Shown here: in pieces, positions 35,235 through 38,645 of the stretch
Position numbering within the stretch: position 1 is the first letter of the stretch
How the letters are laid out: each line of letters starts with the position of its first letter
Source of the DNA: Clostridiales bacterium
Lineage (GTDB): Bacteria > Bacillota > Clostridia > Oscillospirales > CAG-272
Assembly: GCA_016281775.1 (NCBI GenBank)
Contig: JAEEJH010000127.1
Location: 1 to 56,732 of the forward strand
Direction: 5' to 3'
Length of the DNA: 56,732 bases
Program-made: the position numbers and the translations under genes
Notes under the pieces: generated by a model
What the model saw: only the letters and a program-made list of their open reading frames with translations
Told to the model about the DNA's origin: nothing
The model's database searches: none

Positions 35235-36461
35235 ATGAAGCTCGGTTATTCTCACACAAGAGCCGCGGCATACGCGGGCATAGTGGCGCAGTCGCTTTAT
35301 CTCGGGCTTATACCGGTGCTGTTCGCCGCGTTCAAAAACGAATTCGGGCTCACTTACGAACAGCTCGGAAGGATACCTCTGATCAACTTTACGCTCCAGA
35401 TAATACTCGATCTGTTAATGGTGAAATTCGGCGACAGGTTCAAACTCCGCGCGCTTGCGATAGTTTCAAATTCGCTCGGCGTTATCGGGCTCGTTCTGCT
35501 TTCGGTGCTGCCGCGCGTAATGACCGGCGCGCCTTACGCGGCGCTGATGATCTCGACCGCGTTTCTCGCGATCGGCTGCGGACTTATTGATTTAGCGATA
35601 AACCCCGTAATAAACGCGCTTCCGGCGGCTAAGCAGCGGGCGGAGCTGCCGCTTTTGCATTCGTTTTTCTGCTTCGGATCGGTATTCACTTTTCTTACGG
35701 CGACTCTGTTCGTACACTTCGCAGGGACCGAAAAGTGGTATCTTTTGCCGCTCGTAACGGCGTTGATACCGGCGCTCGATCTTATAGCTTTCATATTCGT
35801 GCCTATTATCGACAATAACCGAAGATCGGGTAAAGCCGGGGTAAAAAAGAAATTTATATCTGTTTTATTCATTCTTCTCATGCTTATGATGATCTGCGCG
35901 GGGTCTGCCGAACAGGCGGTCTCGTCGTGGATATCGCTTTTCGCTGAGCTCGGTCTGTCTATGCCGAAGCTGTGGGGCGACATTATCGGCTTATGCGGTT
36001 TTTCGCTCTGTATGGCGATCGGGCGTATGCTCTACGGGCTTTTCGGCGCGAAACTCGACATGAGAAAAACTCTGCTCTTCTCTGCTTTGTGTTGTGTTGT
36101 ATCGTATCTCGGCATTACGCTTATACCGAACAATACCGTTTCGCTCGTATTCTGTGCGTTGACCGGCTTTTCGGTCGCTGTGATGTGGCCGGGCGTACTG
36201 TCCATCGCATCGGATGAGATATCCGCCGACAGCGTGCCGATGTTCTCTATGCTCGCGGTGTGCGGGGATACCGGCTGCGCGGCGGGACCGTGGCTGATCG
36301 GTTTGATCTCCGACGCGGTCGACTCCGGCTCGATAACGTCCCCTCTCACGTATACCGGCGCGGAGGTCGCAACAAGGACCGGCATACTTGCCGCGATAGC
36401 CTTCCCCGCCGCCATGGTACTGTTCTGCGTACTGATCTTAAGAAAAAAGAAAAGCAAATAA
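35235..36461 (+). CDS. MFS transporter
   Basis: About 12 hydrophobic segments; LHSFFCFG, GSAEQAVSSW, IGRMLYG, DTGCAAGP. Confidence 0.88.
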   Translation: MKLGYSHTRAAAYAGIVAQSLYLGLIPVLFAAFKNEFGLTYEQLGRIPLINFTLQIILDLLMVKFGDRFKLRALAIVSNSLGVIGLVLLSVLPRVMTGAPYAALMISTAFLAIGCGLIDLAINPVINALPAAKQRAELPLLHSFFCFGSVFTFLTATLFVHFAGTEKWYLLPLVTALIPALDLIAFIFVPIIDNNRRSGKAGVKKKFISVLFILLMLMMICAGSAEQAVSSWISLFAELGLSMPKLWGDIIGLCGFSLCMAIGRMLYGLFGAKLDMRKTLLFSALCCVVSYLGITLIPNNTVSLVFCALTGFSVAVMWPGVLSIASDEISADSVPMFSMLAVCGDTGCAAGPWLIGLISDAVDSGSITSPLTYTGAEVATRTGILAAIAFPAAMVLFCVLILRKKKSK

Positions 36462-36465
36462 AACG

Positions 36466-36498
36466 CGCCCGGAGCCGATAACGGCTTCGGGCGTTTTT
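36466..36498 (+). terminator. Intrinsic terminator after the MFS gene
   Basis: CGCCCGGAGCCG/CGGCTTCGGGCG stem followed by T5. Confidence 0.85.
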
Positions 36499-36580
36499 AT
36501 CTGCAGTTACGCACTTTCTTTTTGAGGCAGTAAACTTATATAGATTTCGCCGCAGCCGGAATTATAACTTTAAACTGTCA

Positions 36581-36645
36581 GTTATGATTGCCTTCGGCAA
36601 GTTATGATCGGCTTCGCCGAGTTATGAGCGCTTCACACGTTATGG
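36581..36645. repeat. Tandem 18-20 nt units, GTTATGA plus mini-hairpin
   Basis: GTTATGA-TTGCC-TTC-GGCAA, GTTATGA-TCGGC-TTC-GCCGA, GTTATGA-GCGC-TTC-ACAC, GTTATGG. Confidence 0.8.
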
Positions 36646-36740
36646 ACCGCTGTGCTTCCTTAATTGCATTTCCCCGTTGTGCCGCGACCCCGACGGAATA
36701 TCGCGACCGGACCGAACCCGAGCGCTTTCCGTTCGCTTTT

Positions 36741-36937
36741 GGGGTTCCCCGCCCCCTTACGGGAACCCCCACCGCTCTCAAGTTCGCGGCGGGGAACCCC
36801 TTTACCACCCCAAACCCCGCCTTTTTTCCCCCCCCGATATCCTCGGGGCTTTTTCCGCCCGCCGCCGCACCCCCTCGATATAATCGAGGGCAGGGGGGAG
36901 GAAAGGGGTTTGGGGAACAGGAGGGCGGGGGTTCCCC
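36741..36937. other. G/C-homopolymer-rich nested inverted-repeat element (candidate structured RNA/ssDNA or non-autonomous repeat element)
   Basis: 36791-36800 pairs with 36928-36937; 36808-36818 pairs with 36905-36915; internal hairpins 36832-36848 and 36872-36890; alternative 13-bp pairing 36741-36753/36788-36800. Confidence 0.6.
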
Positions 36938-37036
36938 AAGGTAATTTAATGTCGCCTGTGGCGACTCCTCAGTTTTCAACTGTCAACCGATTCTTGATTA
37001 AAAAACACGCCCGATCGCAGATCAAGGCGTGTTTCT

Positions 37037-37065
37037 GTATATTTCTTATACTCCGCGGCGATAAT
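37037..37065 (+). promoter_or_regulatory. sigmaF-type (forespore) promoter
   Basis: GTATA, 15 nt spacer, GGCGATAAT; fits the B. subtilis sigmaF consensus GYATA-N15-GGnnAnAnT. Confidence 0.6.
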
Positions 37066-37091
37066 GATGAAAAACGAAAGGAGTTTTTATC

Positions 37092-37286
37092 ATGGCGCTT
37101 TTTGAAGACGAGAGAACGCCGAGAAACGGCAGACACATCAAAGGAGTATCGTGCGACGTGAAAAACTGCATTTATCACACCGAATACGATCAGTGCACCG
37201 CCGACAGAATAGCCGTCGGCCCGTCGTACGCGAGCTCATGCTCCGATACGGTATGCGCGACGTTTACGCCTAAGAGTACCGTCTGA
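37092..37286 (+). CDS. DUF1540-family small Cys-rich protein
   Basis: VSCDVKNCIYH..CTADRIAV..TVCATF; RBS AAAGGAG. Confidence 0.85.
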   Translation: MALFEDERTPRNGRHIKGVSCDVKNCIYHTEYDQCTADRIAVGPSYASSCSDTVCATFTPKSTV

Positions 37287-38645
37287 TCAGTTTTTCAGCG
37301 AGTGTATCGGCGCGGGGATCCTGCCGCCGCGGGCAATGAACTTTGCCGGGGACAGAGTGCTTATCTTCATAACGGGCGCTTCGCCGAGAAGGCCGCCGAA
37401 GGTAACGCTGTCGCCGGCTTTTTTGCCGTACGCTGGTATGACGCGGACGGCGGTGGTCTTCGTATTCGCCACGCCTATGGATATCTCGTCGGCGATCAAG
37501 CCGCATATTACGGATTCATCCGTATCGCCCGGTATGGCGATCATATCGAGACCTACCGAGCATACGGCGGTCATCGCTTCGAGCTTTTCTATCGTGAGCG
37601 CGCCTTTGCTTACGGCTTCGATCATGCCGGCGTCTTCCGAGACCGGTATGAACGCGCCGGAGAGACCTCCGACGTGTGAAGACGCCATGACGCCGCCCTT
37701 CTTCACCGCGTCGTTCAACAGCGCCAAAGCGGCGGTCGTGCCGCAGGCTCCGCAGATTTCAAGTCCCATTCCCTCGAGTATCCTCGCGACCGAGTCGCCG
37801 ACGGCGGGCGTGGGGGCGAGAGAGAGGTCGACTATGCCGAACGGCACCCCGAGACGTTTAGACGCCTCGCGCGCGACGAGCTGACCCATACGCGTTATCT
37901 TGAACGACGTGCGCTTGATCACTTCGGCAAGTTCGGAAAAGTCGCAGTCGCCGGCTCTCGCTATCGCGGAAGCTACGACGCCGGGGCCGGAAACGCCGAC
38001 GTTTATCACGCATTCGGCTTCGCCGGTACCGTGAAAAGCACCCGCCATAAAGGGGTTGTCCTCCGGTACGTTTGCGAACACCACGAGTTTGGCGCAGCCG
38101 ATACAGTCTTTATCGCGCGTAAGATAAGCGGTCTTTTTTATTATTTTACCCATGAGGGCGACCGCGTCCATATCTATTCCGGCTTTGGTCGAGGCGACGT
38201 TTACCGACGAGCAGACCTTGCCCGTCGTCGCGAGCGCCTCGGGGATTGAATTTATGAGTCTCTCGTCTGCGCCGGTAAAGCCCTTCTGCACGAGGGCTCC
38301 GTAACCGCCTATGAAGTTTATGCCGAGCGCGTCGGCGGCGCGGTCGAGGGTTTCGGCTATTTTAACGTAATCCTCTTCCGAATAATACCCTCCGAGAAGA
38401 GATATCGGGGTAAGCGATACACGTTTGTTTATTATCGGTATACCGTATTCCTTCTCTATCTGCTCGACCGTCTGTACGAGTTTGCCGGCTTTGCCGGTTA
38501 TTTTACCGTATATCTTATCGCAGGCGGTCTTCGGAGAATCCGAAGCACAGTCAAGAAGCGAAATGCCCATAGTGACCGTGCGTATGTCAAGGTTCTCTTC
38601 CTTGACCATATTTATAGTTTCGAGAATATCTTTTGTGTTTATCAT
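37287..38645 (-). CDS. PFL family protein (UPF0210/DUF711)
   Basis: [56 protein letters not shown]. Confidence 0.92.

Follow-up and report, generated by a model that had tools for sequence, protein, structure and literature searches.

The window, a 56,732-nt stretch of clostridial DNA, contains an intergenic tract of some 400 bp that raises the question of whether it encodes an RNA or is a piece of mobile DNA. An earlier note on this DNA left the choice among an unannotated noncoding RNA (ncRNA) or switch, a nonautonomous element mobilized by an HUH enzyme, and a relic single-stranded DNA (ssDNA) origin. The placement given there was borne out: the tract is noncoding and sits between the terminator of an MFS transporter gene (35235-36461; Pfam MFS_1) and a small sporulation gene recognized by a DUF1540 domain match (37092-37286). 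The intrinsic terminator of the MFS gene, a 13-bp stem followed by a T run on the plus strand (36465-36504), was located by an inverted-repeat search, and the repeat tract begins ∼75 nt downstream from it. A DUF711 gene (37287-38645) is convergent to the DUF1540 gene and directly abuts it. A 165-aa open reading frame (ORF) across the repeat (36664-37161) was rejected as a false call, with a codon-usage score of -0.29 versus +0.19 to +0.33 in the neighboring real genes. The segment 47638-47702, flagged in a self-BLAST comparison, is coding sequence of an apparently paralogous gene family and not the repeat analyzed here.

The unusual composition of the tract was confirmed, as GC content reaches 0.61-0.66 and a C-rich half (GC skew, -0.27) is followed by a G-rich half (+0.15). 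The long stem with two internal hairpins is also present, and on either strand, the fold of the tract is more stable than those of its shuffled versions (z = -5.3 on the plus strand and -3.3 on the minus strand). An inverted-repeat search found no terminal inverted repeats at the tract, in agreement with the initial description. The impression of a single element unlike its surroundings did not hold. When positions 36480-37090 were compared by BLAST with the genome to which the window belongs (a 2.58-Mb MAG of 183 contigs), 57 matches were obtained; across 36730-36942, as many as 35 matches elsewhere in the genome cover a single 10-nt bin. The word GGGGAACCCC occurs 70 times and GGGGTTCCCC occurs 49 times, versus 3 expected, and the repeat family whose junction words these are has more than 100 occurrences in the genome.

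Repeated DNA in the window spans ∼36580 to ∼36967. Read on the minus strand, it consists of a long hairpin (LH), a 45-nt unit (U), a P module, a decayed REP, and an array of small hairpins (the T module), and it is collinear from end to end with a canonical composite copy at C147:16520-16900 (z = 12 versus shuffles; the prefix C denotes contigs of this genome). In the LH module (36797-36940), the C-rich arm has CCCCAAACCCC at 36808-36818 and the G-rich arm has GGGGTTTGGGG at 36905-36915, with inner hairpins between them at 36832-36848 and 36870-36890. The U unit (36758-36803, minus strand) reads GAACCCCC, a hairpin, and then GGGGAACCCC; it occupies the position where other copies carry a different small hairpin, and its stem carries a compensatory change of its own, from A-T to C-G. 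The P module (36729-36760, minus strand) is a variant, GTAAGGGGGCGGGGAACCCCAAAAGCGAACGG, of the family form GTA(G/A)GGGTGGGnnnCCCCCAAGAACGAACG. The collinear alignment places a decayed member of the REP2 family at 36672-36696 (minus strand), where the window has CCGTCGGGGTCGCGGCACAACGGGG and the family CCGTAGGGGTCGGCGCCTCGACGACCC; along 36696-36672, the family's CCGTAGGGGTCGGCG is replaced by CCGTCGGGGTCGCGG, GTCG stands at the head in place of GTAG, and nothing remains of the 3′ arm.

The T module (36580-36650, minus strand), absent from the earlier description, holds four units spaced by 20, 20, and 18 nt, each composed of a constant word (GTTATGA on the plus strand and TCATAAC on the minus strand) and a small GC hairpin. 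Two of the hairpins are intact (TTGCCTTCGGCAA and TCGGCTTCGCCGA) and two are decayed, and two paralogous AGTTATGA arrays are present on contigs C71 and C86. At the other end, a small terminal hairpin, GTCGCC-TGT-GGCGAC (36951-36965), belongs to the TGTCGC..GCGAC type (S module). Its match to C36:49-82, which lies at the same position after a P module, is weak (85% identity; E = 0.46), and it likely marks the right end of the repeated DNA at ∼36967. GTAG heads are lost throughout the window copy, with minus-strand GTAAA in place of GTAG in U, GTAA in P, and GTCG in the REP2 relic. From these substitutions, the copy looks decayed and is probably immobile.

To place the window copy in its family, the whole genome was analyzed. 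An iterated nhmmer search recovered at least 62 full LH copies plus many half copies, and the genome also holds ∼49 copies of the 45-nt unit and its relatives and 31 REP2, 32 REP1, and 20 REP4 hits, all of these copy numbers being lower bounds since the assembly breaks precisely at these repeats. The 45-nt unit occurs elsewhere in tandem runs of up to four and also inside REP2 loops. Genome self-comparison yielded ∼300 short-repeat blocks of up to 2.2 kb, amounting to ∼90 kb or ∼3% of the genome; many of them lie at contig ends, which explains much of the fragmentation of the assembly. Automatic module tagging identified the recurring orders LH-P-REP2-array and LH-P-REP4-inverted REP1. According to gene calls from a simple ORF and codon-usage caller, ∼95% of the module hits are extragenic in a genome that is ∼87% coding. 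The same calls indicate that modules tend to be rarer between divergent genes, most clearly for U (1/23), and that U units share the sense of flanking tandem genes by 11 to 2, with no orientation bias for REPs and arrays.

In several module classes, a GTAG head precedes a G-run and a palindrome. Of 130 GTAGGGG sites in the genome, ∼90 continue into one of a few recurring 8-mers (CGATTCAC, 23; TCGGCGCC, 20; TTCCCCGA, 13; AGCGGTC., ∼14). The flanks of the U unit are constant across its sub-families, but the stems that they enclose are quite different. In one sub-family, 92.8% of the stem cells are paired, compared to 35-48% in slid controls, and 8 cells show a double change, compared to 3.0 in shuffles (1/500 shuffles reaches 8). 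The hairpins are maintained by compensatory changes. A single copy lacking covariation in homologs, which would have told against the earlier note, is not what is seen: the element is multicopy, and its hairpins covary. Its suggestion that the G-runs could form a quadruplex is matched by a canonical G4 motif at 36888-36915, in the G arm of LH. In total, 212/232 (91%) of the G4 motifs of the genome fall in the repeat blocks, which cover ∼3% of its length, and G4 potential is a property of the whole repeat family.

The family is confined to one genus in the genomes compared, with matches in 11/11 same-genus genomes (prefix G) and in 0/19 genomes drawn from elsewhere in the family or order. A scan of public genomes with a 39-nt degenerate U pattern gave no hits, in a collection that may not extend to the records near the window's genome. 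One member of the genus is a goat-rumen Clostridia MAG. Within the genus, the DUF1540 and DUF711 genes abut in G000 and G005, are separated by a mosaic in G003, and have ∼700-nt gaps between them in G010 and G007, a spacing that points to repeats there as well, those of G010 with family matches. In the closest relative, G005 (88% identity), no element is present upstream of DUF1540, where the sequence comprises a terminator and the conserved promoter region and nothing more. The MFS and DUF1540 genes of G005 are located on different contigs, with a different upstream neighbor for DUF1540, and this genome does not offer a clean empty site. The exact DUF1540 protein was found on two same-species contigs, both of which begin inside or just beyond the repeat tract, and the same kind of look-up returned no record of the MFS protein. 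Neither the G005 comparison nor the exact-protein look-ups thus provided a filled and an empty site within the species for the window copy, and the empty site with a single AACTGTCA that had been envisaged in relatives was not found. Judged from gene neighborhoods, the modules occupy different sites in different species of the genus.

A candidate mobilizing enzyme is encoded in the same genome. The RAYT-type HUH/Y1 gene RAYT-A (C178:65693-66268; 191 aa) carries the HUH motif PDHIHAII and the tyrosine motif RGYYEHIIR. Its score reaches 24.3 bits against the Pfam model Y1_Tnp (cutoff, 23) and 63.8 bits against NCBIfam REP_Tyr_transpos, short of the cutoff of 80 for the latter. A paralogue with 42% identity is located on C40 (C40:10616-11182). 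The 26-nt REP2 occurs twice, inverted and in frame, inside the RAYT ORF and ∼30 times in intergenic mosaics. No REPs flank the RAYT gene, whose flanks hold only a private 20-nt direct repeat. Genomes with an intact RAYT orthologue contain 11 (G000), 23 (G002), 47 (G004), and 16 (G010) REP2 copies, and G006, in which the gene is split, contains 33; genomes with a pseudogene or no orthologue contain 0 to 2, with the exception of G008, which has 9. This distribution supports a pairing of REP2 with RAYT. Genus members that lack a RAYT-A orthologue (G005, G007, G009, and G011) likewise have LH, U, and P in abundance, and the pairing is therefore not extended to these modules. From their GTAG-type heads and hairpin form, we infer that LH, U, and P may likewise be mobilized by an HUH-type enzyme.

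We consider it probable that 36580-36967 is an old, partly decayed composite copy of a genus-specific, extragenic family of REP/BIME-like hairpin repeats. The family is of the REP/BIME kind in a lineage-specific form, since its location, GTAG heads, maintained hairpins, and differing positions match the properties of REP/BIME elements (PMC2817692, PMC3733652), and the window copy is an ordinary decayed member. The repeat mosaic probably spread as single-stranded DNA, the window copy being a fossil of that process. The modules would spread as ssDNA hairpins through HUH/Y1 (RAYT-type) enzymes that recognize the GTAG foot and the stem, and mosaics would grow through repeated insertion beside or into existing hairpins, as the 45-nt unit in REP2 loops may illustrate. 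Among the options raised earlier, the nonautonomous HUH-mobilized element comes closest, on grounds different from those first offered, given the multicopy GTAG-tagged hairpins, the RAYT gene, and its tracking by REP2. The bracketing AACTGTCA repeats lend it no support, because Y1 elements do not duplicate their target and the pair does not exceed what chance would give. The tract probably has no dedicated regulatory role at this locus. At most, it may sit as a passive stretch of stable hairpins that separates the MFS terminator from the DUF1540 promoter and that, if transcription reads through the terminator, could hold up either the read-through or 3′ exonucleases.

The array module requires separate consideration. 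In the genome, ∼78 such arrays lie outside genes. They contain three to six units, in which a constant 7- to 8-nt AT-rich word is followed by a GC mini-hairpin with a unit-specific stem; the words differ between array families, from locus to locus. Sister arrays match the Gut-1 RNA family (RF01706) at 56.4 and 50.6 bits (gathering score, 50), and paralogous arrays score 50-78 bits on the model. A genome-wide search gave 64 Gut-1 matches here, several of them above the gathering score, and 8-64 in every genus member. The window array, with its four GTTATGA-linked units and two intact hairpins, gave no Gut-1 hit at E≤10 in 36300-37300, and none was obtained at the gathering score in the whole window. 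For 41 of the 78 arrays, a REP or G/C-run module is no more than 200 nt away, which holds for 8-14% of random intergenic sites. Gut-1-type matches also number 25-35 in five other genera without a homologue of this RAYT, and RAYT therefore cannot explain the array module.

The Gut-1 motif, whose model was built on covariation, was described only from human-gut metagenomes and was presumed to be a noncoding RNA (Weinberg et al. 2010, PMC2864571). We tentatively raise the possibility, to which we give less than even weight, that the motif is not an sRNA gene but a module of a composite, strand-polar ssDNA repeat system of gut Clostridia. The arrays, made of constant words and GNA-loop mini-hairpins, would then form the tail of mosaics ordered LH, P, GTAG-REP, and array, of which the window would hold a worn example. 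They would have been laid down by a hairpin-recognizing enzyme other than the RAYT found here, because arrays thrive in genera without RAYT. If so, the Rfam Gut-1 “genes,” which number dozens in each genome, would have to be counted as mobile DNA, with a further mobilizing activity behind them.

The opposite interpretation, which is the strongest of the alternatives to a REP/BIME-like repeat but one we regard as unlikely, is that the family functions as RNA. Arrays and G/C-run hairpins would be transcribed as 3′ untranslated regions or stand-alone RNAs, and the window copy would work downstream of the MFS gene; such RNAs could shield upstream mRNAs from 3′ exonucleases, serve as backup terminators, or titrate an RNA-binding protein. 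Sister arrays above the gathering score of a covariation-built ncRNA model (PMC2864571) are consistent with this proposal, as are the position of the array ∼75 nt after the terminator, its co-orientation with the MFS gene, and the 11-to-2 agreement in sense between U units and flanking tandem genes. The arrays themselves, however, show no clear orientation bias relative to neighboring genes (17 same and 10 opposite; 7 to 5 between convergent genes), and some stand back to back in opposite orientation. The window array is missed by the Gut-1 model and has 2/4 hairpins broken, and the element is absent at the orthologous promoter region in G005. The loops are compatible with either mode of action. 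In the Gut-1 sense, they are mostly UUC(G), UUAC, and UUGC, and c(UUCG)g is an extra-stable RNA tetraloop; on the other strand, they are GAA, GUAA, and GCAA (GNNA), and the GAA/GCA/GNNA loops also suit stable DNA, d(GCGAAGC)-type loops being extra-stable in DNA. The strong loop polarity leaves the choice between RNA and DNA action undecided because it fits stable RNA tetraloops and DNA GNA mini-hairpins equally.

A more specific proposal, a locus-specific RNA switch for the DUF1540 or MFS gene, invokes two mutually exclusive helices that share GGGGAACCCC. The complementarity reported for the word at 36791 is real, with 13 nt at 100% between 36741-36753 and 36788-36800 and 10 nt at 100% between 36791-36800 and 36928-36937, and the tract folds better than its shuffled versions. 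Neither helix is appreciably populated, however: their probabilities in the RNA ensemble are ≤0.001 and ≤0.023, and the Gs of 36791-36794 are locked in the local U hairpin with a pairing probability of ∼0.95-0.98 (LH core, 0.95). Alternative pairings on paper are unavoidable because the mosaic holds four copies of mutually complementary junction words. These are junction words of a repeat present >100 times, for which alternative pairings are expected by construction, and the pairings are no evidence of a switch. Rfam searches of the tract (E≤10) and of the whole window (gathering score) found nothing relevant, the best matches being terminator look-alikes, and G005 retains a conserved DUF1540 promoter region that lacks the element. 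With dozens of paralogous copies in addition, the idea of an ncRNA or switch specific to this locus is not supported; the switch reading is very improbable and close to refuted.

Equally improbable is the reading of the tract as a MITE-type element that a DDE transposase mobilized, AACTGTCA then being its 8-bp target-site duplication. The two plus-strand 8-mers were correctly located, the left one (36573-36580) abutting the first array word and the right one (36978-36985) lying ∼10 nt past the last repeated module. At these distances of 0 and ∼10 nt from the outermost modules, a flanking 8-mer pair around a 330- to 400-nt core has a chance of ∼2% at random loci with tight windows. With loose windows, which match the tolerance of the earlier note, such a pair appears at 16% of random loci, and among 101 internal family blocks, flanking direct repeats of ≥8 nt numbered 7 versus 4 in displaced controls, without excess. 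The paralogous C71 array reads TTTGTCAGTTATGA at the position of the left AACTGTCA and shares TGTCA ahead of its first word, and the tract lacks the terminal inverted repeats that a MITE would carry. We judge the AACTGTCA pair to be a chance match and not a target duplication, and its meaning as a bracket falls away. The idea that an integrated plasmid or phage left behind its single-strand replication origin as a relic, for which only the stable hairpins and iteron-like 20-nt repeats speak, has a negligible likelihood and is effectively refuted by copy number and genomic context: the flanks of the MFS/DUF1540 locus hold no replication or mobile-element genes, the same modules stand at dozens of chromosomal intergenic sites, and the array words vary from locus to locus.

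With the tract assigned to repeat DNA, this locus no longer counts as a candidate riboswitch or ncRNA. More broadly, the orphan Gut-1 RNA family is now connected with a multicopy repeat that colocalizes with REPs. Annotation pipelines and searches for RNA motifs in gut metagenomes should treat hairpin mosaics as repeats before calling regulatory RNAs.

Among known systems, IS200/IS605 elements have subterminal hairpins that are recognized by TnpA(Y1) on ssDNA, and they lack terminal inverted repeats and target duplications (PMC6006769). The system described here shares with them the family of the candidate enzyme, the proposed recognition of a hairpin and a short adjacent word, and the lack of terminal inverted repeats and of target duplications. 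It differs in having no transposase gene inside the element, far shorter modules, and a mosaic assembly. Like the Gut-1 model, the arrays have at least three small hairpins joined by a constant AU-rich linker (UGAAAU in the model and GUUAUGA in the window array, where two of the four hairpins are intact), but they are a multicopy repeat, about half of them near REP or G/C-run modules, with no clear gene orientation. The BOX elements of Streptococcus pneumoniae, composed of boxA, boxB repeated n times, and boxC, are likewise modular intergenic repeats of a Gram-positive bacterium with stable hairpins and a middle unit of ∼45 nt in variable tandem number. To our knowledge, BOX elements have no GTAG-tagged REPs and no Y1 enzyme; the likeness is one of architecture, and a sequence relationship is not expected.

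The closest parallel is provided by the GTAG-tagged REP/BIME elements that accompany RAYT (TnpA-REP) in Escherichia coli, Pseudomonas, and Stenotrophomonas (PMC3733652, PMC2817692, PMC3116915). Both systems consist of short, extragenic, high-copy imperfect palindromes with a GTAG foot in several classes, clustered in mosaics and divided into lineage-specific sequence classes, and in both, the presence of a single-copy HUH/Y1 gene goes with one REP class, here REP2, with G008 as an exception. They differ in host, which here is an uncultured genus of ruminant-gut Clostridia. A 2013 survey of REPs does not mention Firmicutes or Clostridia, and RAYT group 1 has been noted in Clostridia with a weak REP association. 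The window copy differs further in lacking GTAG heads, and the mosaics here include a 145-nt C-arm/G-arm hairpin, 45-nt tandem units, and Gut-1-type arrays. The cognate REP pair, which classically flanks the gene, lies here inside the RAYT reading frame, adding a case of a RAYT gene that carries its own REP pair in frame. A dense REP/BIME-type system is thus documented in uncultured ruminant-gut Clostridia, a group apparently absent from published REP surveys.

The gene for the RAYT, an HUH/Y1 tyrosine transposase, lies at C178:65693-66268 of the window's own genome (positions 1255-1830 of the extracted locus L011), and a paralogue is found at C40:10616-11182. Each of these two RAYT-family genes contains two copies of a GTAG-headed palindrome, inverted relative to each other and in frame. 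The in-frame sites correspond to two fixed positions in the protein, one beginning V-G past the first strand and the other ending P-T past the HUH motif. When 10 homologues are aligned, V-G proves invariant, P-x-P-T is almost so, and the stretch that separates them is lineage specific. Across homologous ORFs from gut Clostridia metagenome-assembled genomes, 35/69 contain within the ORF a GTAG-headed inverted pair that is exact over 12 nt or more.

The RAYT gene at C178 is also bracketed by a 20-nt direct repeat, GGGTCGGCGTTATTGACGGC (C178:65667-65686 and 66269-66288; L011:1229-1248 and 1831-1850), which has no other copy in the genome and whose upstream copy could form a 7-bp hairpin. A variant of REP2, a GTAG-headed repeat class, occurs in G014, a member of another genus of the same family, as 17 copies of GTAGGGGACGGCGCCTTCGACGTCCC (e.g., G014:C1:3869-3894). 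Relative to REP2, the stem of this variant carries a compensatory T-A to A-T swap, and G014 encodes its own RAYT homologue (45% identical).

G-runs are strongly avoided in the window's own genome overall (GGGGGGGG, 5 observed versus 52 expected); despite this avoidance, 212 of its 232 G4 motifs fall inside repeat blocks. An unusually long hairpin array is located at C178:39225-39408, where a three-unit block of TGAATTG plus hairpin is repeated three times in tandem.

The species differ in the presence or absence of intervening DNA at the junction of the DUF1540 and DUF711 genes. These genes are convergent with no spacer in the window (37284-37289) and in G005, a same-genus relative. At the same junction, G003 (C22, L024) bears a repeat mosaic of approximately 310 nt, and gaps of approximately 700 nt are present in G010 (C41, L025) and G007 (C37, L026), with matches to the repeat family within that of G010. 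Upstream of DUF1540 and outside the repeat, window positions 37036-37091 contain GTATA, a 17-nt spacer, and CGATAATGA; the equivalent position in G005 has GAATA, a spacer, and CCGATAATAT. On our reading of the consensus, this arrangement matches a putative promoter of the forespore sigma-F/G type, in agreement with the sigmaF promoter named in the earlier note.

Matches to Gut-1 RNA (RF01706) are multicopy across the genus, with 8 to 64 per genome among the window's own genome, which has 64 (e.g., C113:67964-68037 and C32:6436-6513), and G001 to G011. Five other genera of the order (G013, G020, G021, G025, and G030) have 25 to 35 matches each and lack a homologue of the window genome's RAYT. 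In its description, this Rfam family was known from gut metagenomes only (PMC2864571).
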